Sequence record: PQ511146.1
Reading direction: 5' to 3' (one strand)
From: Escherichia phage NHEP1
DNA: 64,000 nt
Below, in pieces: positions 1,430 through 15,685 of the stretch. The position numbers and the translations under genes were made by a program. How positions within the stretch are numbered: the first letter of the stretch is position 1; each line of letters begins with the position of its first letter. The notes beneath the pieces are model-generated. The model saw only the letters and a program-made list of their open reading frames with translations, was not told the DNA's origin and ran no database searches.

Positions 1430-4400
1430 TTAGTGACAATCACCCCAGTTACGACCGCACAAGTATTCACCTGTGATCTGGAACGGAACGCCCATCATTT
1501 TAGAAGCCTGCCAGAAGCAATGCACCACCATTTCGCCCACAGGGCTCCAGATAAGCTCAAGCTTTCCGTCATCATTCAAGATAGGATCGTATACCGTATT
1601 TCCATCCTTGTCAACCACTTCGTTTCCGTCCTCATCTTTGCGTGCCTTTTTGTACTTATGACCGTCGAACACATGAAGTTTAGCCTCTTGTTGGGCTTTA
1701 AATGTTTCCAGCTCTTCAATTGTGTCGAAGGTGTATACGGTTTTATACTTAGGTGTGTCAGGCACTTGAAGCTGATATTCGTCATGGTAATAGATAATAC
1801 GACGAACACCCTCATCATACCATCCACGCTTCACCATCTGGTGGTGCATGAGGATTCCGACCAAGTCGCACAACGATGCACCGCCATTTTGCTGATATGC
1901 ATTAAGCAAAGAGTGTTTAGAGCGGGTCCAAATGGCATGCCCGTCAAAAGAGTAGATAAATTTCTTACCTGTTGCTTCCCAGAATTTCTCCAGATCCTCT
2001 TTACGCCCCTTAAGGCCCGGGTTGGCATCCCAGAGAGCATCAATTACTCTCTGTCCAAGTTCTGGAGAGATATCTAGCATATCTGCAACTTTATCTTTTT
2101 GTGCCCCGTACATAACCCCATATGTGACAGGCTTACCATCGTTACGGGAAATCTCCTTGCCTGCTACAGAAGAGTAAGCTTTGGCGTTATTACAGTTACC
2201 GCACACTGCCACTTTACCATTCCTTCTCACAATGATTGCTCCAGAAGGGACGGTAACGCAATAAACCAAAGAACCGCTCACCTCGACAGACTCTTTAGAT
2301 AGTGTCAGCAACCCTGCTCTCTGTTTGCTACCAATCGTGATTCTGTGCTGTACGGAACGACCTTTTTTGTGAATCGCCACCGTATTATTCCGTAAACCAC
2401 ACTGAGTAGCCAGCGCAGACACAACCTCTACAGATTTCTTCCTGCACCCGGCCTGAGAGTAGTAGGCAACTTTTCCACCTTCGGAAGATACCCACCCGTC
2501 CCAGTTAGATAAAGAAGCTATAAACAGGTTTTTAGATTCTTTATCAAGGTCCATCAGGTTGTAGGTGAAATCCTTATTGCTGTCCAAAAACTCAAATACC
2601 CAGGACGGAACGTGGAATTGGAACCTTCTCGCCAGTAAGCCCCCTTTTGTGGTTTTCCCGCTCTGCTCTACATAACTAAGGCTTAGAGCAGAAAAAGTAT
2701 CTAAAAGCGTTGCAACTTTTCTGCCCTTCCCGACCTGAATCCTGCACACGATGCTGCCGTCCTTATTTGTATGCAAGTGCCCATCATCGTGAATAGCAAT
2801 AAGCAAATTAACCTGGGCAGGAGATAAGGTTGTATTCCCATAAAACTCTGCCGCATGGATAAACCTTCTTCCTGAATTAGACCCTTTACCTGCTTTCAGG
2901 TCTTTTGCCAAATCTTCAAACAATTTATTGCTTCTGTGATCCACGGTCAGCATCCTGTGTTGATCTGTAACCATAAAATCCACACTGCTGTTGTGGAAAT
3001 GATACATATCCCCACAATAACTACGCTTAACGTAATTTAATGGAGTAACAAGGTTCATCGACGAGGTGTTGTGATCGTACTGGAACACCTGTGTTCCCGG
3101 ATCAAGATCTTCAAACCTCACCCACCCTTTCTCCGTGAGAATTTGTGTATCTCCTGAATAACAGTGTGCATCGCCGTTACTTACAACATCATAATACAGA
3201 CCGTTGTCAAACTCAAAGGCACCCCAGGCCCCGATGAGCTGCTCTAAGTTGGACCCGTCAATACCGATCTCAAAGTATCCTGGAGGAACACCCCACAGAC
3301 TACGCATCTCTTTACCCATAACCACTTTAGGAGATGGTTTAGGCATGTTTGCACAAATACTATGTTTCTGTCTGGAAGTGTTTGTTAATCCAGAACTTTT
3401 AGCAGGAAGCTTGTGGTCAATCTTCAAACGTGGATGATTAAGAAGACCAGTATCAACCTTATCTTCCTTGATTGGATCAAGGACCGATCTGCGGTTTCGC
3501 AATGATAACCACAAAACGATATCTTTAGCCATCTCTCCGTTCAATTTTTCAAGATTCGGGCACAGGTGTCCAAACGTATCTTTCAGTTGCGGAGAAGTAA
3601 TAAGCGCTCTGGCTTTTCTACGTATCTTCCCAAACACTTCCTTTTTAATCCTTTCTGAGTTAGGGAAGCTTCGGAACTTATGCACAGTTGTCTGGAACTT
3701 GGCATCAGTTTTGTTCCAGAAGTTGATAATTAGATCACAATACTCTGACTCCAAAAGCTCGTCCATATATGCATATACTCGTGCATCAACATCTGCATCA
3801 GGTAAAGCTTTCTTCTTGCTGTCTTTAGTTACATCTTTAGTTCTCCACATTGTTGGGAGCCAACCAGCACTGATCAGGTATCGCTTGATGTCGTCCTGAT
3901 TGCTGATTTTCATAGGTATCTTGCAGTCAGGCATTCGCTTCTGCTGTAGGTCACTTATCGCCTGATCCATCAGCTCTTTAGGTAAAGGGTGTGGTGTAGA
4001 AGTTCCTTTGATATACCCCCTCAAGAAATCAGCCATCTTATCGGGGTCTTTACAGCCCATCTCTTCACACCATTTTATCCCCATCTTACTTACATCCCCT
4101 GTGGAGGTAAATGCTCGCTTAGGAGGAGCTTTGAACTCTAAAGCACTCATGTCCACAGGGTAGCCAAGCTTGTCTTTTAACCATTTCCAACCATTATTGG
4201 AGATTGTCCCATCTTGGTTAAACGGCTTTTCAGGGAACTTAGGCCGCTGAGACATTGATAACTCTTTTAAAGGAAGTTGTGGTTCAACACGATCAGCGAT
4301 CTCTTTCATCCACGCATCGCAACGGTCACGTAAAGCAATAGCCCCATCTATGTCGAAATACACCCCCTGTCGAGCCTGCAGCTCCATCAGGAAGTGCTGT

Positions 4401-5176
4401 AACATGCCTCGGCGTAATGCGTTCTTCCAGGTGATCTTCTTGAAGCCTTTCGGCTTCTCTTTGGCAGGATCGTACATAAAGTTCTGCATGTCAGATTTGC
4501 CGTAGAATACACCTTTTGATTCCGCTACCAACTCCTTCCAGAGCAACTCCTGGATGATAACGTCCTCGAACACACGATCCACATACTTCCACAGTGGAAG
4601 CTCACGCCAGTCATCGATTTGAACTTTCTGGTTACCAAGGGCATAGCCCCATGCCATAAGGCCATGAGGCCCAACAGGCTGCATTTTCTTGGTAACTGGA
4701 TTGAATACTGCGTCCGGACAACCTTTTGGCAAAGGGCGGTCAGGCCACAAGATTCGGCTCATCGCTAACGTATCAAACAGATTAACCGGGTGGTCGTTGA
4801 TAGTCCCCATGCATTTAGGATCACGGAACATATCAAAATGAATACCGGATAATCTTTCCATCAGCATAAAGTCGTAACTGTAGCAGTTATGACAGTTCAA
4901 AGCCGTAGGTGACCAGTCTGAATTGCCTGTAAGCCAACCTTCCAACTCTGAAAAATCTGCTATGCGAGCCTCAAAATCTGTATAAAGGGTCTTCTTTGCC
5001 AGAATGAAGTTCTTAGCTTTCTCCACATCCTCTTCAGAGTAGTGTGTGCGGTCATTTAGAGGAAGGAACAGCATAAAACGGTTCTTATTCAGCTCTTTAA
5101 ACAAACCGCAGTGATAATAAAGATCTGGGTCTTCCAGCAGGCCAGAGGCCTCAAAATCGAACGACCACATGCTCAT
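1430..5176 (-). CDS. DNA polymerase, family A, with N-terminal 3'-5' exonuclease domain; intein-containing precursor
   Basis: 1248 aa; Exo I motif FDFEASGL; Pol A motif A-like IDGSNLEQL, motif B KxxxYGxMYG, motif C YYHDE; AAGGAG SD before ATG at 5176. Confidence 0.9.
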   Translation of the reverse strand: MSMWSFDFEASGLLEDPDLYYHCGLFKELNKNRFMLFLPLNDRTHYSEEDVEKAKNFILAKKTLYTDFEARIADFSELEGWLTGNSDWSPTALNCHNCYSYDFMLMERLSGIHFDMFRDPKCMGTINDHPVNLFDTLAMSRILWPDRPLPKGCPDAVFNPVTKKMQPVGPHGLMAWGYALGNQKVQIDDWRELPLWKYVDRVFEDVIIQELLWKELVAESKGVFYGKSDMQNFMYDPAKEKPKGFKKITWKNALRRGMLQHFLMELQARQGVYFDIDGAIALRDRCDAWMKEIADRVEPQLPLKELSMSQRPKFPEKPFNQDGTISNNGWKWLKDKLGYPVDMSALEFKAPPKRAFTSTGDVSKMGIKWCEEMGCKDPDKMADFLRGYIKGTSTPHPLPKELMDQAISDLQQKRMPDCKIPMKISNQDDIKRYLISAGWLPTMWRTKDVTKDSKKKALPDADVDARVYAYMDELLESEYCDLIINFWNKTDAKFQTTVHKFRSFPNSERIKKEVFGKIRRKARALITSPQLKDTFGHLCPNLEKLNGEMAKDIVLWLSLRNRRSVLDPIKEDKVDTGLLNHPRLKIDHKLPAKSSGLTNTSRQKHSICANMPKPSPKVVMGKEMRSLWGVPPGYFEIGIDGSNLEQLIGAWGAFEFDNGLYYDVVSNGDAHCYSGDTQILTEKGWVRFEDLDPGTQVFQYDHNTSSMNLVTPLNYVKRSYCGDMYHFHNSSVDFMVTDQHRMLTVDHRSNKLFEDLAKDLKAGKGSNSGRRFIHAAEFYGNTTLSPAQVNLLIAIHDDGHLHTNKDGSIVCRIQVGKGRKVATLLDTFSALSLSYVEQSGKTTKGGLLARRFQFHVPSWVFEFLDSNKDFTYNLMDLDKESKNLFIASLSNWDGWVSSEGGKVAYYSQAGCRKKSVEVVSALATQCGLRNNTVAIHKKGRSVQHRITIGSKQRAGLLTLSKESVEVSGSLVYCVTVPSGAIIVRRNGKVAVCGNCNNAKAYSSVAGKEISRNDGKPVTYGVMYGAQKDKVADMLDISPELGQRVIDALWDANPGLKGRKEDLEKFWEATGKKFIYSFDGHAIWTRSKHSLLNAYQQNGGASLCDLVGILMHHQMVKRGWYDEGVRRIIYYHDEYQLQVPDTPKYKTVYTFDTIEELETFKAQQEAKLHVFDGHKYKKARKDEDGNEVVDKDGNTVYDPILNDDGKLELIWSPVGEMVVHCFWQASKMMGVPFQITGEYLCGRNWGDCH
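2195..3163 (-). mobile_element. intein (about 323 aa) in DNA polymerase between motifs A and B, with putative LAGLIDADG-type homing endonuclease
   Basis: Begins CYSGDTQIL (block A, Cys1 codon at 3163-3161); TxxH block B (VTDQH); LLIAIHDDG and IASLSNWDG resemble LAGLIDADG; ends ...VAVCGN with +1 Cys; motif B resumes right after. Confidence 0.7.
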
Positions 5177-5234
5177 ATACAGTTCTCCTTAAAGGGGAGG
5201 CGGTTGTACTACCCCTCCCACTCTTGGTTAAACA

Positions 5235-7313
5235 TTAAAAAGGTGTTTCGTCGTCTTCAAAACCAGGAACGTGGTTAGAGGACGGATCATCATACTGAAG
5301 GTCTTCCTGTGTGTCAACAGGGTTAACAGCAGGGGTTATAACCTTATCAGCCACAACCTTGCCCACAGGTGTTTCTACAACTGCATGCTCCTGATCCTCA
5401 AACATAGCCTGAGGTCTCCAAACAACCTCCCCACCTTCCCCGTCTGTAAACATCTGCATTTCTTTGTCCCAGTACCAGTTGCTGGCATCATAGAACTTGC
5501 CTGTGTGGGGATCCATAACTAGAGTGTCCGCAATACCTAAGGTTTTTGCTGGGCGGTTTTTAAGACCTACCAGTCGGACACGTCCACGGGAACGATCCAC
5601 CATCTCCTCTGCCTCTACCCCGACAACCACCCAGCTAAGTTGCTCCAATCCGGCACTACCGCGAAGGTTCTCTTTTCGTACAGGGTACCAGAAAGGTAAC
5701 GGATTTCCATCCTTATCCTTCGGAGGTACAATCTCTGTGCGCTTCAGGTGAGCAATCACCAAGATAAACACATTAAACTGCTTACAGAACGCGGCTAGTT
5801 GAGTCATAGCCATGTCAAGCTCTTTACGCTCATCCTTAACATTAAGCCCTGAAATCACCATAGACAGGTGATCCAGCACAATGTAACGGCAGTGATACAG
5901 GCACACCATTTGTTTAAGCTTAGTGATCAGCTCATCTACAGGGATGGAGCCGAAATGCTTGAACACTTTGATTTTTCCGGCCTTGGCCCAAGATTGATGA
6001 ATCTCAGCGTGCTCCTGATCGGTCAGGAACTGACTGGGGTCTTCAACAAACTCTTTAACATCAAACCCCAGCTGGTTAGCGTACAGAGAGTTGATTGCTT
6101 CCTCAGGATCCTCTTCAAGGTGAATCAGGCACAGGCGATCATCCTCTTCATAATCATCAGCTTTAGGGCATGTTGGATCCATCAAGTATCTTGCAATGCA
6201 ATGTTCCAGCTTCTTGGCTACAGTTGTTTTACCACCGCCAGACGGGCCTGTCAGCATCATCAAGGTGCCTTTGTGGAGTCCTTTCAGCATCTTCTGCAGT
6301 TTAGGGAACTCTGCACTGATATCTACGCCATTGGAAGTCTTCTTACGAAGAGATTCAATGGAGAAGTCTTCTAAATCAGATACAGCATCAGGCACATATT
6401 TGACTGGGTGACGGAACATGTTGACAATATCTTCCAGCTTTTTAGCCTTCAGCATGTCACGAATATCTTTTACACCATCAGGGTCGTTTACCTCACCCGG
6501 GTATTCCACGTGGTAAACGTTATCAGCCATCAAAAATGCTGCGATATTATGTGTGGCTTCAACACCTTTAATAACGTGTTTTTGCTTCTCTACCTCGTTA
6601 GCTGCATCGTTGTCCATTGCAAGGACCACTGTTCCGTAGCTACGGATAAATTTCTCATTGTTCGCAAAAGTGTCTACGGCGTTTGCACACCCACAGTTAA
6701 TTCCAACAAAAGGCAGGCATGGTTTTCCTGCCAGATCCCCGCCGTTGATAACTGCATCAATCCCATCCTGGACTTCTTTAGCCCACTGCTTCACCTTCGC
6801 TGGGGCTTTAGCATTGGTGAGAATTCCTTTTACTTGTATCTGATATGCAGCCTGCCACGCTGCAATAACATCTCCTTCTCCCTCACAAACGTTAATCTGC
6901 TTACGGTTGTTGGAGGATGCACACAGCTTTTGACCAAACATCTGGGAGTTGGCCTTTACTATGCCAACAACCGAGAAATGGCCCCTTTGCTCTTTAGGGA
7001 TTGTCCAGTCACGCTTTTTAAAGCCAGATAGATTACCGTAGCGGTCATAATACGGAAAGTAGGTGGCAGTAACAGTTACACCATCCTCTTGGGATAGCGA
7101 TGATCGTACACCAAAATATTGTGCAGCCATCAGTCCAATATTTTGTTGTGGAACAGGGACAATTTTAGTGTTTTCTAAAACAGTCTCCACAGTTTCAACT
7201 TCTTTTTCATCACGATAGTCTCGTTTCACACTCCCCCCACTTTTATACTTAGTTGCTTTCGGGTTTGGCTCACCGAAACGGTTGTATGCAGATGCCATGA
7301 ATTTACTGCCCAT
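5235..7313 (-). CDS. DNA primase/helicase (TOPRIM-like N-terminal region plus DnaB-like ATPase)
   Basis: 692 aa; Walker A LTGPSGGGKTT, Walker B-like YIVLDHLS; acidic VLAMDNDAANE region N-terminal of the ATPase; AAGGAG SD. Confidence 0.7.
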   Translation of the reverse strand: MGSKFMASAYNRFGEPNPKATKYKSGGSVKRDYRDEKEVETVETVLENTKIVPVPQQNIGLMAAQYFGVRSSLSQEDGVTVTATYFPYYDRYGNLSGFKKRDWTIPKEQRGHFSVVGIVKANSQMFGQKLCASSNNRKQINVCEGEGDVIAAWQAAYQIQVKGILTNAKAPAKVKQWAKEVQDGIDAVINGGDLAGKPCLPFVGINCGCANAVDTFANNEKFIRSYGTVVLAMDNDAANEVEKQKHVIKGVEATHNIAAFLMADNVYHVEYPGEVNDPDGVKDIRDMLKAKKLEDIVNMFRHPVKYVPDAVSDLEDFSIESLRKKTSNGVDISAEFPKLQKMLKGLHKGTLMMLTGPSGGGKTTVAKKLEHCIARYLMDPTCPKADDYEEDDRLCLIHLEEDPEEAINSLYANQLGFDVKEFVEDPSQFLTDQEHAEIHQSWAKAGKIKVFKHFGSIPVDELITKLKQMVCLYHCRYIVLDHLSMVISGLNVKDERKELDMAMTQLAAFCKQFNVFILVIAHLKRTEIVPPKDKDGNPLPFWYPVRKENLRGSAGLEQLSWVVVGVEAEEMVDRSRGRVRLVGLKNRPAKTLGIADTLVMDPHTGKFYDASNWYWDKEMQMFTDGEGGEVVWRPQAMFEDQEHAVVETPVGKVVADKVITPAVNPVDTQEDLQYDDPSSNHVPGFEDDETPF

Positions 7314-8067
7314 TAATTCTTCTCCTTACTGCAGGCTCGTTTGCTAAGAATACAGCTCTTGCCCAGCCACGTGGTGTAAGGCTTCGAATCATCTTCGTCC
7401 TTGCACTCTTTCCACCTAGCTTAGCGTGTTGCATGGAATAACCACTAACCGCATCAACTATTTGCGGGACAGGTTTTGTGGCGGGGATTATAAATCCATT
7501 GCCTATCCAACCGCAAGTTATTTTTGGGTAGGCATCACGTGGAGCTATAAATTCAGGAAACCATGGGTTTACATCATCCTCTGGTAAATACCCACCATAA
7601 TCCGAAGGATGAAAACGGTAATCAGGTTTTCGCCACAGTGTTGACATAACTCCTACAGGGTTCTCTACATGCCACGGGCAATCGTAAATCTCTCCCAACT
7701 CTTCTGCAACCCGAGCATCTTTCACAGCATTAATTTGGATCAGAGGATCCTTAGCCAGCTTTTTCTTAAAGTGTGCAGCTCCGGATACTGCTAAATGCGT
7801 GCACGGAGGAAATGCAAGAATAAAGTCTGGAGCCGGATACATGCAAAAAGTTTCTTGAGGGAACCATGGATCAATCCAATAATCCACATAGTGAATGTTA
7901 GGATGATCGGTTATCACCTCTACATAACTACCGTGGTCAGCACCTTCTGCATTAAAGCACAGGCACAGGTACCCAGCTTTTGCCCAGTCAATAACTGCAC
8001 CACCGGACCCGTCAAATAGACTCCACACGACACCTTTGTGGTAGTGTTCTTTGTAGATAAATTTCAA
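7303..8067 (-). CDS. DNA (cytosine-5)-methyltransferase-like protein
   Basis: Motif I SLFDGSGG (FxGxGG), motif IV-like FPPCTHLAVSG (PPC), motif VI HVENPVG (ENV) in canonical order; track start GTG at 8097 lies in a terminator hairpin, TTG at 8067 follows AGGAGA SD (start uncertain). Confidence 0.5.
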   Translation of the reverse strand: MKFIYKEHYHKGVVWSLFDGSGGAVIDWAKAGYLCLCFNAEGADHGSYVEVITDHPNIHYVDYWIDPWFPQETFCMYPAPDFILAFPPCTHLAVSGAAHFKKKLAKDPLIQINAVKDARVAEELGEIYDCPWHVENPVGVMSTLWRKPDYRFHPSDYGGYLPEDDVNPWFPEFIAPRDAYPKITCGWIGNGFIIPATKPVPQIVDAVSGYSMQHAKLGGKSARTKMIRSLTPRGWARAVFLANEPAVRRRINGQ

Positions 8068-8083
8068 TTTGCTGTCTCCTAAT

Positions 8084-8112
8084 GCAAAAAGCCCCACCCT
8101 TTCGGGCAGGGC
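8084..8112 (-). terminator. rho-independent terminator after the 8119..8601 gene
   Basis: Minus-strand transcript GCCCUGCCC-GAAA-GGGUGGGGC followed by UUUUU. Confidence 0.55.
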
Positions 8113-8118
8113 ATAGTG

Positions 8119-8601
8119 TTAAACCCGGATACCTATTGTATACTCGGTGGATACCAATGTCAAATCTAAATTTAAAATTTCTTGCATCTCATAGTATGCG
8201 TCCAGGGTGAGATACATTTCACCATCCTTTTCTACATACTTGTCAAGGTGTTTTAGGCACTTTGGATAGCTATCAAGGGCAGCCTTTAGGCACTCAAACT
8301 CCGTGCTGTTGATGAATCCTTCCATCTTGGCTACCCGTTCCGGAGTAACGATAGCACTGTAGTGAGATTTAGCTTCCTGAATGCAATGGGTCCAAGCATC
8401 AACTTTCTCTTCGAAAAGTCCGAAGAACTTCTTCTTGGTGAGCTTCAGATTCTTTAAGTGCTTAAGAACTCGGTTGCCGATTACAGACACATCACGAAAC
8501 TTAAGGATCACTTTGTCAATATCCTCGCGGCCTATTTTCACAAAGCAGGCCTCACACATTTCAGGAGAGGCATAGCCTACTTTCCACATAAAATCTGACA
8601 T
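8119..8601 (-). CDS. hypothetical protein
   Basis: 160 aa ORF; AAGGAGGG SD 7 nt upstream of ATG. Confidence 0.6.
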   Translation of the reverse strand: MSDFMWKVGYASPEMCEACFVKIGREDIDKVILKFRDVSVIGNRVLKHLKNLKLTKKKFFGLFEEKVDAWTHCIQEAKSHYSAIVTPERVAKMEGFINSTEFECLKAALDSYPKCLKHLDKYVEKDGEMYLTLDAYYEMQEILNLDLTLVSTEYTIGIRV

Positions 8602-8613
8602 AGCACTCCCTCC

Positions 8614-9012
8614 TTATTCCTGAAAAGCAACGATATCGTATGAGCTTGCAGACGAGCCGGGGGAAGAGTGACTCCAGTCTAGATCATCAGAGAAGTCAGC
8701 ATACTGTGCACCACTCCGCAGTTTATATTTTACCCACTTACCTGGTGCAGGGTTTTCACCACCCTCCCATACTTCCCAACCTTCTGGCAAGCCGTTATCT
8801 TGGGAGTAACCATCAACTTCACTAGTGATCTCTGGGTTTGGCACCAAGATCCATGCAGGCTCTTCCTTCTTAGCAAGTGTCCACACAATGTATGTGTCTG
8901 AGCAGGAGCATGTCAGTAAAGTATACCCACTGTTCAGAACTTCTGCAAGCTCTTTTTCAGCATCTTCTAATTTGGTTAGGTGGTATTGGATAATCTTCAC
9001 ATCTGTAATCAT
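8614..9012 (-). CDS. hypothetical protein
   Basis: 132 aa ORF; AGGAGG SD upstream of ATG. Confidence 0.6.
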   Translation of the reverse strand: MITDVKIIQYHLTKLEDAEKELAEVLNSGYTLLTCSCSDTYIVWTLAKKEEPAWILVPNPEITSEVDGYSQDNGLPEGWEVWEGGENPAPGKWVKYKLRSGAQYADFSDDLDWSHSSPGSSASSYDIVAFQE

Positions 9013-9314
9013 TAGAAGCCTCCTACTTCTTCAGCAAATGCTGCCGCTGTCGTCGCTGCATCCAGATAGGACTCTAGTTCACGTGCTGCACGTTTGTAAA
9101 TCGAGTGGCGCAGATCGTTTGGTAACTGGTGAAAATCCACCTCTTCTCCGTTGTGGTAAACATGCACATCAGTAATCTGTCTAAATCCATAATAATCAAC
9201 ATCAGAATCACGGCACTCCAGATCTGGCAACTGGACAACTGCCTGAGCCTCTACAGTGAGCATATCGTCAAGTTCGAAATCGATTTCAAAAGTGTATGGT
9301 TTATAACGCTTCAT
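9012..9314 (-). CDS. hypothetical protein
   Basis: 100 aa ORF; AAGGAG SD upstream. Confidence 0.6.
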   Translation of the reverse strand: MKRYKPYTFEIDFELDDMLTVEAQAVVQLPDLECRDSDVDYYGFRQITDVHVYHNGEEVDFHQLPNDLRHSIYKRAARELESYLDAATTAAAFAEEVGGF

Positions 9315-9373
9315 TATTCGGTGTTCTCCTTATCTTGTGTGAAGAGTAGACCTCTCCTTCGATATTTTAAATA

Positions 9374-10717
9374 TTACTCTAAATCTTCTTCTGAGTCAAG
9401 CTTATCTTTCACAGCTAAATTAGGGGCAAGTTTGTAATAGCGAAAGCCCCCACCGCCTTGCCAGTTTACAGATTTAGAAATACCACTTTGATCTTCACCA
9501 TCGATCACTTTTTGCAAGCGTGGAATAATATGGGTATGACAATGATCTCCTAGCTCAACCGAGATCCAACGTCTTTTCATCTTGTGAGCTACAGCAGCAG
9601 TAGTTCCAGAACCACCAAATGAATCCAATACTAAATCTCCTTCTCGCGTACACATTTCTAAAATCCGCTTCAAAAGCGCTTCAGGTTTTTTTCCATTTTT
9701 GAAACTAACGCCCCCTTCATTTGCTATTCCATTCCAACTAATGTCAGTCCAAACATCAGTTATTAGTTCAGCAGGCTGCATCTCACCGTCAATTTCCAAA
9801 AGCCTGTTGGAATAAAAGACCATTTGCCTACCATTTGCGATATAAAAGCCTTCGACATCCTCATTTGGATGTACATAAACCTTATCCCTATCTTTCTTTG
9901 ACTTCTCGATAGTTTCTTTTCTCTTTATTTTGGCACCACCGCCAATTGCAACGGATTGAAATACACGTTCTGCATTATCAATTGCAAATTGTGCTAATTC
10001 ATCATCAAATGTATCAGGCAGTTTTTTCTTGGCTTCTTTTGTATCTTTATAGCCATTGGCCTTTGCAAACGCATCGGCAATACCGCACCACGTCCAACTT
10101 TTATAATGGTCATCTGGGTTTAATAGATATTTGTTATATCCCGTATCATACTCTTTAGGTATATAGATTTTGTTAAGTGGTTTCTTGGTACGATCTTTTG
10201 CATATACAAGCAAAAAGTTTGCTGTGGAGAAAACTGTAGTTCCTGTTGCCTTAAAGCCTGAAGGGCAATTTGTAGTCATCGATATGGTATTTAACTGATT
10301 TGCACGACCAAAAATCTCGTCCATCAAGACTTTTAAATAAGCCATTTCGCAGTCATCTAAGTGAACGAATATCACTCCATCATCGCTTAGCAGATTACGA
10401 ATTATTTCTAATCTGTCCCGCATTAAGCCCAGCCAAAGGGAGTGCTCCAGGCTATCATCGTAGTGCTCAAAATCCCTTCCGGTATTGAATGGCGGGTCTA
10501 TGTAAACACACTTCACTTTGCCTGCATACTCTTGCTCTAGTGCCTTCAATGCCAGTAAGTTATCTCCAAAAATCAGTTTATTATCAAAAATATCGTTTTC
10601 GGTCACCTTTTTACTGGCGTGATAAGACTTGCTCGAATCTTCTAACAAAATGTGAGGCTCTAGCTTTTTGCGCTCGTTCTTACCTATCCAGGTAAGTTCT
10701 AATTTGGTTTTACTCAT
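9374..10717 (-). CDS. DNA methyltransferase, N6-adenine/N4-cytosine beta class
   Basis: 447 aa; motif IV IDPPF precedes motif I DSFGGSGTT (beta-class order). Confidence 0.85.
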   Translation of the reverse strand: MSKTKLELTWIGKNERKKLEPHILLEDSSKSYHASKKVTENDIFDNKLIFGDNLLALKALEQEYAGKVKCVYIDPPFNTGRDFEHYDDSLEHSLWLGLMRDRLEIIRNLLSDDGVIFVHLDDCEMAYLKVLMDEIFGRANQLNTISMTTNCPSGFKATGTTVFSTANFLLVYAKDRTKKPLNKIYIPKEYDTGYNKYLLNPDDHYKSWTWCGIADAFAKANGYKDTKEAKKKLPDTFDDELAQFAIDNAERVFQSVAIGGGAKIKRKETIEKSKKDRDKVYVHPNEDVEGFYIANGRQMVFYSNRLLEIDGEMQPAELITDVWTDISWNGIANEGGVSFKNGKKPEALLKRILEMCTREGDLVLDSFGGSGTTAAVAHKMKRRWISVELGDHCHTHIIPRLQKVIDGEDQSGISKSVNWQGGGGFRYYKLAPNLAVKDKLDSEEDLE

Positions 10718-10743
10718 CGTTTGGTGCTCTCCTTAGTTTTTGT

Positions 10744-10761
10744 GGGGAGGAGTGCCTCCCC
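10744..10761. other. perfect intergenic hairpin GGGGAGG-AGTG-CCTCCCC
   Basis: 7-bp GC-rich inverted repeat between methyltransferase start and upstream gene stop; no U-tract on the coding (minus) strand. Confidence 0.4.
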
Positions 10762-10778
10762 TTTATACTCACATCTTA

Positions 10779-11120
10779 CTACTCAAGGTCTTCAGAGTCA
10801 AGCTCAAAAAGAATCAAACTGTGCATGCCTGCAGAGAGATCAACACACCCTGCAACAATAAGGGTTTGATAGTAAGGTTCAGCACCCTCAATATCTTCGT
10901 TAAAATCCACAACAAGGTAGTCACCTTTGTTAAAGGTGTATTTGTCCGATGTAAACGCAAAACCTGCCCAGTCCCCTACTGCAGGATCTTTATCAGTCAC
11001 CTTTGTTAGCAGTAGATCTTTTTCACGAGATCTTTTAGTAAAATCGTGAATCACAACATCCTTCTCTTCAGGAGTCGGATTGCCACACACGTAGTTAACG
11101 ATATTTCTCCACAAACTCAT
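10779..11120 (-). CDS. hypothetical protein
   Basis: 113 aa ORF; stop overlaps start region of next gene. Confidence 0.55.
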   Translation of the reverse strand: MSLWRNIVNYVCGNPTPEEKDVVIHDFTKRSREKDLLLTKVTDKDPAVGDWAGFAFTSDKYTFNKGDYLVVDFNEDIEGAEPYYQTLIVAGCVDLSAGMHSLILFELDSEDLE

Positions 11121-12487
11121 ACGTCCCCCTTTTCTGCTCTAGTTTCAAAATCTTTCCTGACTTTCTCGTCTAAGCCAGGGAAAGTTGTATTATAAAACTC
11201 TACGACTCTCGGGTCAACAATAATATCCACCTCTCTTAATGGACGCAACAAGTTTATTCCTTGTATCGTCTTAACCCGACTCAAGGCAACATACGTCATT
11301 CCGGGAGAGAAAGCTCCGTTCTTTCCGAGGTCTAGGTTGTAACAATCTAACGTAAGTCCTTGACTTTTATGCGATGTTACTGCGTACCCAGATTTCAAAG
11401 GAAGTTGCTCATAAGACCCGATCACAACCCTCTCTATGAACTTCTCCATCTTCCTTTCGGCAATATTGTACCTCTGGGAAGGTTTGTACTCGTTATTCTC
11501 CCACAATCTCGGCTCAATTTCAACCTGTGTCCCGTCTTCCAGCTCAACCACCACAGACTTGGTCTTGAATTTTACCACTGTGGCGCGTGTCCCGTTGACA
11601 TAGTACGGAACTTTATGTGTCGGGTCAACATCGTTTGAGGTTATCATAACCTTCATCCCTATCTTCAGCCTCATTTCCTGCTCCACAGGCAGTGTGGAGG
11701 GGAACTTACCTTTCATTTTACCAATGTAGGTCTTCTCTGGGGCCTTGATGGCATCATAGAAACGTCTGTTCACCTCCTCTGCTTGCTTATTGGTGGCACA
11801 GATGGTCAAGGCATCTGTTGGGACACCACCATGATAGCAACGAGTGTTAAGCTCTGCTACAACCTCTTTTATGCGACGACCTTCACGAACACAGTTCAAC
11901 ATTGTGGCGAAGCGAACAGATTCCTGACGGAACTGGTCTACTAATGCTATATTGTGAAGATTAAGATCCTCCCAAGATTTTGTATAGCAACACAGGTCTG
12001 TGTGGTAGAAGTTGAAGTAGGCTTCTTTCTCCATAGAAGAGACAACTGGGGGTGCTTGGTAGAAATCTCCAAACAATAGCACCTGAATGCCTCCGAAAGG
12101 TTTGTCATTTTTCCGAAGAAAGCGGAGTTTTCTATCCATCTCTATGAACTTGTCAGCACGGATCATAGAGATTTCATCGATAATTAGGATGGTAAATGCC
12201 TTGCTTTTCAGAGGCTTTGCTGTTTTTGCCCTTATTGCTGTCCAGTCTGACTCCATGCTCACACCTGCGGCAAGATCGAAAGTTCGGTGCGCTGTTGCTC
12301 CATTAACGTTTAAAGCGGCTACCCCTGTCGGGGCAACCGTTATGCAAGAGTCTCCATACATGGACTGGATCATGTTGATAAGATATGTCTTCCCGGTTCC
12401 ACCGGGTCCACTTACGAAGACATTCTCACCACTCATGATTGCAACAAGGGCAGCATCTGTGCCTACATCGTACTGCCCTTTTTCCAT
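11117..12487 (-). CDS. SF1 DNA helicase, Dda/RecD/Pif1-like
   Basis: 456 aa; Walker A GPGGTGKT, Walker B IIDEISM, C-terminal SHKSQGLT and YVALSRV motifs. Confidence 0.85.
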   Translation of the reverse strand: MEKGQYDVGTDAALVAIMSGENVFVSGPGGTGKTYLINMIQSMYGDSCITVAPTGVAALNVNGATAHRTFDLAAGVSMESDWTAIRAKTAKPLKSKAFTILIIDEISMIRADKFIEMDRKLRFLRKNDKPFGGIQVLLFGDFYQAPPVVSSMEKEAYFNFYHTDLCCYTKSWEDLNLHNIALVDQFRQESVRFATMLNCVREGRRIKEVVAELNTRCYHGGVPTDALTICATNKQAEEVNRRFYDAIKAPEKTYIGKMKGKFPSTLPVEQEMRLKIGMKVMITSNDVDPTHKVPYYVNGTRATVVKFKTKSVVVELEDGTQVEIEPRLWENNEYKPSQRYNIAERKMEKFIERVVIGSYEQLPLKSGYAVTSHKSQGLTLDCYNLDLGKNGAFSPGMTYVALSRVKTIQGINLLRPLREVDIIVDPRVVEFYNTTFPGLDEKVRKDFETRAEKGDV

Positions 12488-13692
12488 TACGCCTCCTCGT
12501 AGATAATGTCGATAGTATTACCGTCGCGGTCAACCACGTACTCAATTGGGTCGCCATCTTTGCGTGATTCTGGAGCTACTACGATTTCGTAGCGGCATGC
12601 ACGGCACTTGGCGCTGTTGTGTTGGTAAGGTACACTAACTACATCAGCAGGGTCAACCATGACCGTCATCACAGTTCCGTAGCTCTTTGCATACTCTTTG
12701 CTGGCACAGTGCAGGCCATAAGAGCATGCAGCTTCCGGATCATCCTCTACAAAGTTACGGGGCATGGATACAAAAGCTCCCTGGTATTGTGGGACTTTAC
12801 CACTGTGCCAATCCACCCACTTGTCGCCGTTAAACTGAACCCCTTTGTAGCAAATGATTCGACCATCTTCTGCAATCTGAATGTCGTTTGCCTGCATAAA
12901 ATCGTAGAGCATGTTTACAGATTTTGCAGAAGGATTGCGTAGCAGGCGAACGAGGAATTTCACATAGCGGTCATCCAGTGTTCCGTCTGCATAATCTTTC
13001 TCAATTTTCTTTGCAATGGTGGATCGCATCTCTACACCGTAGTAGTAGAGCTTACCATCTTTCATGATCAGGTTGTCTGCAAGTGTGGTGAACTCATTCT
13101 TGCGTTCCAGCCAGACAAGGATTTCACCAATTGCCTCGTCATATTCCTGAACAGAGATATGGTCGAAGACTTTCTGGTAAACTTCCTCACTTTCACTGCG
13201 GCGAATTTCAAAAATACCTTCGTTGCAGGTGATCTGGAGGAGTTCCCCGCAAATAACCACCAAAGGCTCGATGCTTCGGGTCTGTTGCTGAGACACACTG
13301 CTCACCACCTCCAGCACCGGGTCTTTTACTTCTACTAAAGGTTCTTCTGACTTGATTGCTACCCCAGTGAACCCTACACCGTGAACAACACACAGTGGAT
13401 ATACCACACCCCAACGTTTAACGGAACCTTCTCCTGAATCTAAGATCATGGCGTACTTACCGTTATCTTCCAGCCCATATCGAAATAAACGGGCCTCTTC
13501 ACGGGTTTCAAAATCCTCACGGGTGTAGCAGACGCTGTCACGGTCAGGATCGAACAACTCTGGGGCACCTACTGCCAGTGTCCAGGTTGTGTTACCTTTC
13601 TCAATAGCGCATGTGAAACCCTTCTTCTCAAGCTCTGCACGGCGGTCACGTGCTTCTTTACGAGTTTTGAAATGTTCGTAGATGAAAATCAT
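12487..13692 (-). CDS. rIIB-like protein (tentative)
   Basis: Directly downstream of GHKL-ATPase gene; C-terminal region (MLYDFMQANDIQIAEDG...DVVSVPYQHNSAKCRACRYEIV) resembles my recollection of T4 rIIB; start moved to ATG after AAGGAGA SD. Confidence 0.45.
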   Translation of the reverse strand: MIFIYEHFKTRKEARDRRAELEKKGFTCAIEKGNTTWTLAVGAPELFDPDRDSVCYTREDFETREEARLFRYGLEDNGKYAMILDSGEGSVKRWGVVYPLCVVHGVGFTGVAIKSEEPLVEVKDPVLEVVSSVSQQQTRSIEPLVVICGELLQITCNEGIFEIRRSESEEVYQKVFDHISVQEYDEAIGEILVWLERKNEFTTLADNLIMKDGKLYYYGVEMRSTIAKKIEKDYADGTLDDRYVKFLVRLLRNPSAKSVNMLYDFMQANDIQIAEDGRIICYKGVQFNGDKWVDWHSGKVPQYQGAFVSMPRNFVEDDPEAACSYGLHCASKEYAKSYGTVMTVMVDPADVVSVPYQHNSAKCRACRYEIVVAPESRKDGDPIEYVVDRDGNTIDIIYEEA

Positions 13693-13702
13693 CTTGGTCT
13701 CC

Positions 13703-15685
13703 TTATTTGATGTTATTCTTTGTATCAATCAGTTCACGGTATTCAATCATAGCAGGAGTGTCCCAATATTTCAAGCCTACATGCTTCAAAAGTGGATATT
13801 TCTTTTCCAATCTTGCAATATAGGCCTTCCCGCACTTAACCCGGTTGGCGATTAAGATTTTGGCACGATGATTTAGCTCACCGTACTTCCACGTGGTGCT
13901 ACCTTCCCACTTGTGGAAATGTGGCCGATAACTTCCAAAATCCTGCATGGGGATAATTTTACCTAACTGTCTGTACAGGCTGTCATATGAAGTTTCATTT
14001 GCTGCGCGAGTTAGTAAGAATTTCCAAGCATCCTCTTTCAACAAATGTTCCACATTCTTCTCTGTAACATATTGGCAATCAGGATCAGTCCAAAGCAGAC
14101 GAGATTCCGACACCAGGTACAGATCTTCCCCTTCAGGAATCTGGAGTGCCGCACGCACACGGTCATAATCTTGCTGGTAGATGTTGCTCATCTGCCCTAG
14201 CCAACAACTTCCGCGTTGGATATCCCCCTCATACGGTATGCAGTGCTTAATCTTCCTGAACTCTGCCTTAGTAATACGCTCACGCCGGAAGTAACCATCC
14301 TTCTCAAGTTTTTTAACCCAATAGCCTGGTTCGTAACGGGTTTTGGTTTCACCTTTCTTCGTAGGTCGGCGTGGAAGCTCCGATAACAATTTGACCGTAT
14401 CTGCAAAAAACGGATGGTGTGCCGCCTCTTTAAACTCTTTCACCAGATCCGTGTTACGGCAATAGAAAACGTTGCGTCCGGTAATCTCGCTTAAGTAGTT
14501 ACACTTATTCCGGTTATATTTGCCGTCTCCGTCGTTAAATACTAAATAAACTCCCCGTAAGAATTCTACCTTTCCGTAGCAGGCGTAACCTATGCGGCCT
14601 TTATTTAAGCCGCCAGCGAAGATCTCGCAGTCCCCCAAATTTCCTAGCCCTGTTTCTTCCCAGCGGTCATACATAAAATTCTTACCGAAGATGTGCCCGA
14701 ACACTCCACTGTTCTTCATCATCTCGCGTGCTTCTGAGGATGTTTTTGCTGTCTCCAGTTCTGCAACAACTTCTGCTCCACGAAGGCGAATGCCTTCTTT
14801 GACAAAAGCTTCCAAACGCTCTTGGAATCCACCATCGTCGTGACCTTCTATGGTCCATTCACGCCCTGGGTTAATATTGCAATCTCCGATAGGGATCTCT
14901 ACACAAATTGCAGGATAATCTATTAGTGTCTCCAGGAACTTAGAACGGTAAGGTTGGTGACCCATTACCACACGACTCTCGTCAGAGCTGGTATAACCCT
15001 TCAGGATGGTCATCTTCCAACCATCTTTTTCATAATAATACTGCGCCTCTACTTTGTCTCCCTCCAGCATCTTGCTCGTCATCGGGTCGGTGACAGTGAA
15101 CGGAAATTTTGCATAGCGCAGGCATGATGCAATAGCGGTGCGATATTTCAGAACATGCTCTTTCTTAACATGAAACTGAACTTTTACCCCGTTGTGCTCT
15201 TCAGTCTTCCGCTCACGGATCTTGGTGACATTTGGGATACCCTGGTCCAAGAACAATAGGTATGTGCTTTCCACACCGTTGTGCACACTGATTACATCGA
15301 AAGTGTCCACCATACTGAACGGGGCCTTTGAACCAACACCTTTATTGCCTACCAGAGCGTTGCTGTTGCGCTTGGTTGACTCTCCGAGGTTCATGAAGGT
15401 GTTGCGGACCATCTCTTCTGACATGCCTAATCCAACGTCCTGCACAAAGAAGTATGGTTCAAGGTCTGTAGGAGAGTGAATGATGATCGGAACATCACCC
15501 CGTCCAGACTCAACATGGGAGTCCACAGCATTGAAGATCGGTTCACGGCAGCTTGCCAGCACCTTATCTTCATAAATCCCTTTGATGATTAGCCCAAAAG
15601 TCTCTTTGTTCAGAGAAATTGATCCCCTGGTTACCTCCATATTCCCAGTTAGCACCGCTTTAGTTTCACTGCTGTTTACAATCAT
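13703..15685 (-). CDS. GHKL-family ATPase, rIIA-like (tentative)
   Basis: 660 aa; Bergerat-fold motifs FNAVDS (N box), DVGLGM (G1), GNKGVGSKA (G2) in N-terminal third; AAGGAG SD. Confidence 0.55.
   Translation of the reverse strand: MIVNSSETKAVLTGNMEVTRGSISLNKETFGLIIKGIYEDKVLASCREPIFNAVDSHVESGRGDVPIIIHSPTDLEPYFFVQDVGLGMSEEMVRNTFMNLGESTKRNSNALVGNKGVGSKAPFSMVDTFDVISVHNGVESTYLLFLDQGIPNVTKIRERKTEEHNGVKVQFHVKKEHVLKYRTAIASCLRYAKFPFTVTDPMTSKMLEGDKVEAQYYYEKDGWKMTILKGYTSSDESRVVMGHQPYRSKFLETLIDYPAICVEIPIGDCNINPGREWTIEGHDDGGFQERLEAFVKEGIRLRGAEVVAELETAKTSSEAREMMKNSGVFGHIFGKNFMYDRWEETGLGNLGDCEIFAGGLNKGRIGYACYGKVEFLRGVYLVFNDGDGKYNRNKCNYLSEITGRNVFYCRNTDLVKEFKEAAHHPFFADTVKLLSELPRRPTKKGETKTRYEPGYWVKKLEKDGYFRRERITKAEFRKIKHCIPYEGDIQRGSCWLGQMSNIYQQDYDRVRAALQIPEGEDLYLVSESRLLWTDPDCQYVTEKNVEHLLKEDAWKFLLTRAANETSYDSLYRQLGKIIPMQDFGSYRPHFHKWEGSTTWKYGELNHRAKILIANRVKCGKAYIARLEKKYPLLKHVGLKYWDTPAMIEYRELIDTKNNIK

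Follow-up and report, generated by a model that had tools for sequence, protein, structure and literature searches.

Two putative DNA methyltransferases of different classes in the replication module of an rV5-like Escherichia phage: a compact C5-cytosine enzyme and a truncated type III Mod-like protein

Introduction

Why does a phage carry two DNA methyltransferase genes of different classes in its replication module, and what would the two enzymes modify? The question is raised by a stretch of 64,000 nucleotides (nt) from Escherichia phage NHEP1 (sequence record PQ511146.1), which as a whole is called the window below. Its minus strand encodes a small protein that resembles cytosine-C5 methyltransferases and a large protein that resembles Mod, the modification subunit of type III restriction-modification (RM) systems. 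A first-pass annotation made from the sequence alone had described the pair as a beta-class enzyme and a compact C5-like enzyme, suggested dual genome modification as anti-restriction, and considered an unusual specificity or a different transfer chemistry for the small protein in view of its short length and its PPCT motif.

The window belongs to a Vequintavirus, i.e. an rV5/FV3-like E. coli myophage. Its 4-kb methyltransferase region is 97.6% identical to that of Escherichia phage S127 BCL3 and 92-97% identical to the region in 117 rV5/FV3-like myophage records (genus Vequintavirus). Both open reading frames (ORFs) were found in place on the minus strand (Table 1) and both genes are already annotated in public records, the small one as 'DNA cytosine methyltransferase / Dcm-like C5 cytosine methyltransferase' and the large one as 'adenine methyltransferase / type III restriction-modification system methylation subunit'. 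From the results described below we consider it very probable that both proteins methylate replicating phage DNA, the small one producing 5-methylcytosine (5mC), with CCWGG as the leading candidate site, and the large one N6-methyladenine (m6A) at the site of one type III system.

Class and bacterial source of the large methyltransferase

Profile and structure database searches related the large protein to the Mod subunits of type III systems. The ORF matched Pfam N6_N4_Mtase (E = 5e-44, residues 68-394) and the PADLOC MTase_III model PDLC03636 (E = 3e-205, positions 2-445 of 575). Matches in the PDB included H. pylori Mod (6k0w, E = 4e-29), EcoP15I Mod (4zcf, E = 4e-24) and Mbo45V (E = 1e-19). 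The DPPF motif precedes FGGSG, which supports the beta-class assignment of the first pass and, with the C5-cytosine fold of the small protein described below, its statement that the two enzymes are of different classes. The large protein thus appears to be a beta-class N6-adenine enzyme derived from a bacterial type III Mod.

Homologues of ca. 570-600 residues occur in bacteria (Acinetobacter, Thermomonas, Pseudomonas, Aeribacillus and others) and share 60-77% identity with the phage protein over 98% of its length, and short forms of 439-452 residues with 61-71% identity recur in metagenomes. A 567-residue Mod from E. coli is 95% identical to the phage protein over residues 1-443. The E. coli mod gene lies in a defence island, immediately upstream of a gene encoding a 910-912-residue protein with a ResIII domain, and PADLOC assigned the two genes to MTase_III (E = 6e-284, full length) and REase_III (E = 9e-191). 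Among 5,426 complete E. coli genomes, 29 had the mod-res pair, chromosomal in all of them; the carriers include avian pathogenic E. coli (APEC) O1:K1:H7 and isolates from cattle and humans, with the strains LS45, APEC E16002, APEC E18006, 2014C-3011 and CFSAN004176 as examples. A res gene is also found 3' of the homologous mod in Acinetobacter and Pseudomonas.

The donor pairs have a characteristic surrounding. A gene for a DrmD-like SNF2 helicase is followed by variable cargo, mod and res (loci L004:4106-14464, with the E. coli mod-res pair at 10001-14464, L009:366-9571 and L011:1-9538). The helicase scored E = 9e-209 against PADLOC DrmD and stayed under the NCBIfam cut-off; the cargo consists of AbiD and AbiU in E. 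coli, AAA_21 and DUF4276 in Acinetobacter, and SMC_N/AAA_15 and AIPR in Pseudomonas. Instead of a simple type III system, the donor locus may represent a defence locus that is composite or bears a hotspot.

No res gene adjoins the large gene in the phage, where the neighbors are small phage ORFs and a gene for a Dda/Pif1-like helicase. Without an adjacent res the large gene is best described as an orphan, Mod-like yet outside any type III system.

Truncation, capture and conservation of the large gene

The phage protein lacks the C-terminal domain (CTD) of ca. 124 residues that is present in the E. coli Mod and ends at about residue 521 of EcoP15I Mod. In the latter protein the methyltransferase domain extends to residue 516 and the CTD comprises residues 539-644. 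The EcoP15I Mod dimer is formed via the N-terminal domain (NTD) and the methyltransferase domains, Mod2 is a stand-alone methyltransferase, and ModA contacts Res extensively through its CTD and additionally through its methyltransferase domain (PMC4490356). The alignment suggests that the phage version has lost precisely the domain that docks Res in EcoP15I.

The borders of the exchanged segment are legible in the flanking DNA. The large gene is bracketed by an imperfect direct repeat of ca. 92 nt (D1 and D3), of which the upstream copy (A) and the downstream copy (B) are spaced by 1402-1403 nt. In phage LL12, which is without the large gene, the junction occurs once and undisrupted, and copy A matches it at 87 of 91 positions; copy B matches copy A at 67 of 89 and the LL12 junction at 65 of 87 positions. 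The last nine codons of the large enzyme (KLDSEEDLE-stop) are encoded by copy B, replace the Mod CTD and mirror the ELDSEDLE-stop end of the preceding ORF. The duplicated junction and the wide bacterial spread of full-length mod-res pairs indicate, at the level of sequence, that the gene was captured from a bacterium by the phage with duplication of the target. Transfer in the direction from phage to E. coli was judged less likely, since full-length mod-res pairs with 60-77% identity occur in Acinetobacter and Pseudomonas (further full-length Mod homologues being present in Aeribacillus and others) and the tail of the phage protein copies the phage junction. A 12-nt string (ACACAAGATAAG) is identical between the leader of the E. 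coli mod gene and junction copy B. It may mark a crossover point or be a chance identity, and we draw no conclusion from it.

Comparison of the phage and E. coli mod alleles gave 0.235 synonymous substitutions per synonymous site (dS) and 0.020 nonsynonymous substitutions per nonsynonymous site (dN), a dN/dS of 0.08. Residues 190-352, which include the recognition domain, do not differ by a single amino acid. These values show that the large gene is under purifying selection and has been kept functional, and its specificity should equal that of the E. coli system. The ORF is intact in 87 or more Vequintavirus records with 91-99% identity (counted with a threshold of at least 80% identity). Among phages the gene was confined to Vequintavirus, with relatives of ca. 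40% identity in Campylobacter phages. A group of MG0656xx records (for example MG065658 'Campylobacter phage C7', MG065682 and MG065662, with C. jejuni as the host) is 92-97% identical to the methyltransferase region of the window and contains both methyltransferase genes; by their sequences these look like rV5-like coliphages of which the host was mislabelled.

Family, motifs and fold of the small methyltransferase

The small protein matched PHROG 757 'DNA methyltransferase' with E = 4e-87, and 4,178 homologues were found in a set of 5.8 billion proteins. With clustering at 50% identity, 1,025 representatives were obtained. Among the matches listed, nearly all homologues are ca. 210-260 residues long. 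Size and motif being common across the homologues, the short length and the PPCT sequence are family traits and not the peculiarities of this phage for which the first pass had taken them. Searching with tblastn detected the gene in 1,504 phage records, 116 of them from Vequintavirus with an identity of at least 90%. The carriers include Vequintavirus, Seunavirus, phi92-like phages, many Drexlerviridae (of Klebsiella and E. coli), Jersey-like phages, Kagunavirus and some T4-like phages, and at larger distance Vibrio and Arthrobacter phages and cyanophages. The small gene is a core gene of the rV5-like phages and belongs to a large phage family.

Conserved motifs were identified in an alignment of 35 homologues (residue numbers refer to the 264-residue protein starting at GTG). 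The FxGxGG motif (FDGSGG) and the PPC motif of the first pass were confirmed, and the third motif reads ENP instead of the ENV given there. C99 and E145 are the equivalents of C82 and E128 in the Dcm protein of phage K42, where they have been assigned as the catalytic and a substrate-binding residue, respectively, and the match of ENP to motif VI of DNMT3A rests on the AlphaFold2 (AF2) superposition published for K42 Dcm (bioRxiv 10.1101/2023.08.16.553469). Further invariant or nearly invariant columns are K192 and T194 in the sequence PK(K/I)TC(L/G)W and the segment R238-S-L-T-P-R243 ahead of the last helix. Where a recognition domain would be expected there is space for only ca. 35 residues.

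An AF2 model built with the 35 homologues had a predicted local distance difference test (pLDDT) score of 86.8 and a predicted template modeling (pTM) score of 0.87. A Foldseek search of the PDB gave 59 matches at E ≤ 1e-3; the 50 matches listed were all catalytic domains of DNMT3A or DNMT3B except for the prophage methyltransferase 3g7u. The presence of a methyltransferase fold in the smaller protein, on which the first-pass proposal hinged, is borne out by this confident model and by top fold matches that are DNA C5-methyltransferases. The modeled structure suggests a cytosine-C5 methyltransferase fold that is closest to DNMT3A/B.

Sequence-based methods recovered this relationship in part. 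With the PF00145 profile the small protein of the window was below detection and the curated threshold of the hidden Markov model (HMM) was not reached, 18 of the 35 homologues were touched (E ≤ 1) only at profile positions 3-94 of 324, i.e. the region of motifs I-IV, and three homologues topped the 22-bit cut-off. A full-length family profile gave only weak N-terminal matches in the PDB, to DNMT3B and M.HaeIII (E = 0.4-0.9, motifs I-IV), and the sole phmmer match of the small protein in the PDB was a chance hit to a sperm-tail protein. R238 may be the counterpart of N304 in HhaI, R350 in CmoX and R891 in DNMT3A. This correspondence is our own reading; the searches gave no residue equivalence for motifs VI, VIII and X.

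Chemistry and target site of the small methyltransferase

A relative of the small enzyme was characterized by Wang et al., who raised escapers from retron Ec86 in K42, a KarlJaspers-like phage of the Drexlerviridae. In four out of four escapers a 711-bp 'dcm' gene was disrupted, and expression of K42 Dcm was toxic only when the retron was present. Liquid chromatography coupled to mass spectrometry (LC-MS) revealed a high 5mC level in the multicopy single-stranded DNA (msDNA) of the retron with wild-type K42 Dcm but not with a C82A/E128A/K175A/K176A mutant. Defence and sensing were abolished when the CCTGG sequence in the msDNA stem was altered, and a dcm+ host alone left the msDNA unmethylated (bioRxiv 10.1101/2023.08.16.553469).

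Phage KarlJaspers carries a 711-bp gene annotated as 'Dcm-like C5 cytosine methyltransferase', and the small protein of the window is 54% identical to its product over 235 residues (full length; BLASTP, E = 9e-87). The numbering holds in the orthologue of phage tonijn, where residues 82, 128, 175 and 176 are C, E, K and K, respectively. The equivalents of C82, E128 and K175 are kept in the window protein and that of K176 is Ile. The small protein is therefore a member of a DNA methyltransferase family for which the formation of 5mC has experimental support. Because a relative with 54% identity over its full length forms 5mC on DNA according to LC-MS, a different transfer chemistry, as considered in the first pass, is by analogy unlikely.

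The 5-mer counts of the window are compatible with a biological relevance of CCWGG, which as a 5-mer pair is the third most depleted, with 99 occurrences observed and 150 expected from a Markov model. Two other lines were set aside. EcoRII-resistance data for Klebsiella phages were not used as support, as host Dcm and phage Dcm are not separable in those data. Modification at the level of dCMP or full replacement of cytosine was rejected, since EcoRI and EcoRV cut these rV5-like phages in vivo and the small protein is folded like a DNA methyltransferase.

Proposed roles and alternative explanations

The small enzyme would most likely use S-adenosylmethionine (SAM) in the standard covalent mechanism, in which the cysteine attacks C6, giving 5mC. 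If the target is CCWGG, enzymes of the EcoRII type would be blocked, and in hosts with retron Ec86/Eco1 the same methylation would expose the phage to detection. The large enzyme would be a Mod subunit of type III origin that was exchanged with Enterobacteria and that retains the N-terminal dimerization domain, the methyltransferase core and an unchanged recognition domain. Such a truncated Mod would write m6A exactly at the site that a single rare type III system of E. coli recognizes, without assembly of a nuclease, and would thereby make the phage immune to that one type III system only. Activity in this phage, both recognition sequences and a protective effect are what we infer here.

A number of observations weigh against these roles. 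The small protein gave no match in Pfam, NCBIfam or PADLOC; from the HMM check proposed in the first pass, the Pfam N6_N4_Mtase match of the large ORF and the PHROG 757 match of the small ORF emerged, and the Pfam/NCBIfam miss of the latter remained. In place of the Q-x-R-x-R of motif VIII the sequence is P-K-I-T-C-G-W (family consensus PKKTCLW), without the arginines, and a profile of the C-terminal half matched no methyltransferase among solved structures. On sequence grounds the small enzyme departs from canonical PF00145 enzymes in two features, the HMM threshold and motif VIII. For K42 Dcm, specificity for CCWGG was itself taken over from host Dcm by analogy and tested only via mutation of the msDNA site (bioRxiv 10.1101/2023.08.16.553469), and the loop following motif VIII is of a GYSMQH subtype in the window protein vs. 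DNPGW in K42 Dcm. Given this analogy-based site, the inactivity of the dcm+ host on msDNA, the different loop subtype and the change of K176 to Ile, CCWGG remains a candidate target of the small enzyme. Other palindromes are also scarce in the window (GTAC 0.56, CTAG 0.55), and since palindrome avoidance is general the depletion argument becomes weaker. In the literature we found no methylome or restriction-digest data on rV5-like phages, and the rV5 genome paper is silent on methylation.

For the large gene, ca. 30 of the 117 Vequintavirus records have a clean deletion-sized gap at its position (LL12, SophiaRose, HMD-6 and HeinrichReichert among them), so the gene is accessory and dispensable. 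Vequintavirinae were reported to be 'exceptionally susceptible' to the RM systems tested with the BASEL collection (PMC8594841). In the raw BASEL efficiencies of plating, obtained with systems that do not include the donor system, DrSchubert, which has the large gene, and HeinrichReichert, which lacks it, can be compared. The values were ~0.6 and ~0.44, respectively, with EcoKI and ~1e-3 and ~2e-4 with EcoRI, and neither phage gave plaques with EcoRV or EcoCFT_II. The two phages respond alike to all four systems. With Vequintavirinae being susceptible to RM and presence of the gene having no effect on the tested systems, any protection by the large gene would be narrow. The anti-restriction role proposed in the first pass is still the best reading for the large enzyme as a near-copy of a type III Mod, but does not amount to a broad shield.

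We assign a low probability to the alternative that the captured Mod co-assembles with and poisons the host type III complex as a form of dominant-negative anti-restriction and that, separately, the C5 enzyme has a non-Dcm target. Its second part, that the small enzyme acts on a short or relaxed site or on single-stranded or hairpin DNA, or uses carboxy-SAM as in CmoX, is unlikely when taken by itself. Such a target (short site, hairpin or single-stranded DNA) would explain, if true, that retron msDNA is methylated by the phage enzyme and not by host Dcm. CCWGG is depleted in the window, however, and DNMT3A and DNMT3B likewise carry an Arg at the motif X position (GRSWSVPV) and use SAM, which we count against a non-Dcm chemistry. 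In addition, LC-MS found 5mC and not 5-carboxymethylcytosine (5cxmC) with the 54%-identical K42 enzyme, and sensing was lost upon mutation of CCTGG in the msDNA (bioRxiv 10.1101/2023.08.16.553469).

The first part, that the truncated Mod serves mainly as a subunit poison, instead of or besides methylating, by forming heterodimers with host Mod that are unable to dock Res, is quite improbable. The phage protein keeps the NTD and the methyltransferase core, lacks the CTD and is 95% identical to host Mod, and in EcoP15I the dimer forms via the NTD and methyltransferase domains and the ModA CTD contacts Res (PMC4490356), as such a role would need. However, strict conservation of DPPF, FGGSG and the whole recognition domain, at a dN/dS of 0.08, is expected of an active enzyme and needless for a decoy. 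Moreover, the ModA methyltransferase domain also contacts Res, so loss of the CTD may not end binding (PMC4490356). That one or both genes are passengers, i.e. a decaying remnant of a captured mod and a methyltransferase-like protein without a DNA-modifying role, is very improbable: ca. 30 of the 117 related phages do without the large gene and show no obvious consequence, RM sensitivity is equal with and without it in the BASEL pair and the small protein is under the Pfam thresholds, but at least 87 records (91-99% identity) contain an intact large ORF, with a dN/dS of 0.08, the 439-452-residue forms recur in metagenomes, the small gene is found in practically every Vequintavirus record and well outside the genus, its catalytic residues being invariant, and a homologue of the small enzyme is active in vivo (bioRxiv 10.1101/2023.08.16.553469).

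With methylation by both enzymes as the preferred reading, rV5-like phages with the gene at 9374-10717 are predicted to plate on the ~0.5% of E. coli that possess the donor type III system (APEC O1:K1:H7 and some cattle and human isolates). Relatives without the gene (LL12, HeinrichReichert and others) are predicted to be restricted there, which is relevant to the choice of Vequintavirus phages for O157 or APEC biocontrol. For the small enzyme, the rV5-like phages fall in a family of which the Drexlerviridae member triggers retron Ec86, suggesting a liability on retron-bearing hosts. The region is a clean natural case of a defence subunit turned into a counter-defence, with donor and breakpoints, duplication of the target and loss of the partner-binding domain all legible. 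The new elements are of modest extent: identification of the donor system, an exact loss of a domain, a visible duplication of the junction and the accessory status of the gene in the genus. Otherwise the case is ordinary, as phage orphan methyltransferases are a well-known means of counter-defence.

Organization of the region

All genes from 1430 to 13728 are carried by the minus strand, and the term replication module used in the first pass is appropriate in view of the neighboring genes for a DNA polymerase, a primase/helicase, a Dda/Pif1-like helicase and an rIIB-like protein (Table 1).

Table 1. Positions of the genes, motifs and junction elements of the methyltransferase region in the window
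Feature	Position	Strand	Description
DNA polymerase	1430-5176	-	
Primase/helicase	5235-7313	-	
Compact Dcm-like C5-cytosine DNA methyltransferase gene (putative)	7303..8067	-	254 residues, TTG start
Small methyltransferase ORF as listed from GTG	7303-8097	-	264 residues
Small enzyme, motif VI ENP in place of canonical ENV	7657..7665	-	Residues 145-147; E145, N146 and P147 invariant
Small enzyme, motif IV PPCT with predicted catalytic cysteine C99	7798..7809	-	Residues 97-100; P97, P98 and C99 invariant in 35 homologues
Small enzyme, motif I FDGSGG, predicted SAM-binding loop	7999..8016	-	Residues 28-33; G30 and S31 nearly invariant in 35 homologues
Hairpin and T-run (8091-8112), then AGGAG ribosome-binding site (8076-8080)	8076..8112	-	Upstream of TTG; GTG 8097 in the stem
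Three small conserved ORFs between both methyltransferase genes	8119-8601, 8614-9012, 9012-9314 (span 8119-9314)	-	PHROGs 12900, 11995, 4240, function unknown
Downstream copy B of duplicated phage junction	9312..9403	-	Last ORF codons, spacer, ribosome-binding site, ATG
Large methyltransferase ORF: putative orphan, C-terminally truncated type III Mod-like N6-adenine DNA methyltransferase	9374..10717	-	447 residues
Segment exchanged horizontally	9388..10730	-	93.9% nucleotide identity to 5' 1.34 kb of E. coli type III mod (blastn, 1,344 nt)
Large enzyme, motif I FGGSG, predicted SAM-binding	9605..9619	-	Residues 367-371, after recognition domain; alignments to Mod, CcrM, M.MboIIA
Large enzyme, motif IV DPPF, predicted catalytic	10487..10498	-	Residues 74-77; aligns with DPPY of EcoP15I Mod and H. 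pylori Mod
Upstream copy A of duplicated phage junction	10715..10806	-	3' end of ORF 10779-11120 (ELDSEDLE-stop), hairpin, ribosome-binding site and ATG now serving the large gene
One small ORF	10779-11120	-	Between large methyltransferase and helicase
Pif1/Dda-like helicase	11117-12487	-	
rIIB-like gene	12487-13728	-	

Translation of the small gene almost certainly begins at the TTG and not at the GTG codon, judging from an AGGAG sequence 8 nt upstream of the TTG, the position of the GTG inside a hairpin, and the homologues and GenBank annotations, which begin at the TTG (MKFIYK..., 254 residues). The hairpin is terminator-like, with nine pairs of which seven are G-C. A sigma-70-like promoter (TTGACA-17-TACAAT, 11 of 12 consensus positions) is located at 8135-8163 on the minus strand within the 3' end of ORF 8119-8601, and is followed by the G+C-rich hairpin and T-run just upstream of the small methyltransferase gene. 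The promoter and the terminator-like element are an odd pairing that might regulate this gene. At its other end, the 3' end and stop codon of the small gene overlap the start of the primase/helicase gene by 11 nt, and the two genes are apparently translationally coupled.

The three ORFs between the methyltransferase genes have no Pfam match and are kept in all related phages, including those without the large methyltransferase gene. Minus-strand ORFs 8614-9012, 9012-9314 and 10779-11120 showed weak matches to PHROG families labelled 'DNA ligase' (phrog_10384, E = 3e-7; phrog_10936, E = 2e-4) or 'DNA methyltransferase' (phrog_1573, E = 6e-4). The matches probably stem from short domains in common, of obscure meaning. 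A motif scan of the 64-kb window revealed no third pair of amino-methyltransferase motifs. The DNA polymerase has a 323-residue intein-like insertion (residues 672-994; window 2195-3163, minus strand) that runs from CYSGDTQILT to VAVCGN and is followed by C. It gave a weak Hint_2 match (residues 672-706) and is missing from the otherwise 98-99% identical polymerase of S127 BCL3 (925 residues).

Comparison with known systems

The small enzyme shares with K42/KarlJaspers Dcm the family, a compact size (254 vs. 236 residues), the catalytic Cys, the Glu of ENP, the first Lys of the KK pair and a DNMT3-like modeled fold. It differs by the replacement of K176 by Ile and by the GYSMQH instead of the DNPGW loop; furthermore, it comes from a myovirus and not a siphovirus, and is known from its sequence and model. 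With E. coli Dcm, M.HhaI and M.HaeIII (PF00145) it has in common a Rossmann-type C5-methyltransferase fold, FxGxG, a PC dipeptide and an acidic motif VI, whereas it is ca. 100-200 residues shorter and lacks a recognizable large recognition domain. Compared with these canonical C5 enzymes it also has ENP for ENV and K-x-T for Q-x-R-x-R, and the HMM sees motifs I-IV only. CmoX (PDB 8yf3; PMC12783734) is a phage C5-carboxymethyltransferase of 333 residues in the PDB entry, in which a Glu and an Arg contact the cytosine and whose gene usually lies beside cmoA and a ligase gene. Its motif is SPPC, in contrast to FPPC in the window enzyme, of which the characterized relative makes 5mC.

The large protein resembles type III Mod (EcoP15I, 4zcf; the mod-res pairs of E. 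coli LS45 and APEC E16002) in the beta-class order of motifs and the N-terminal domain, and its recognition region is identical to that of the E. coli Mod. Unlike these proteins it lacks the CTD and a nearby res gene, lies in a phage replication module and ends in a phage-derived tail of nine codons. Like the phage orphan methyltransferases that stem from host RM systems, as reviewed by Murphy et al. 2013 (PMC3837797) and covered in PMC12707154, it represents the modification half of such a system, carried to pre-methylate DNA. In contrast to those examples, the sequence here directly reveals the donor, the breakpoints and the fact that the partner-binding domain was lost.

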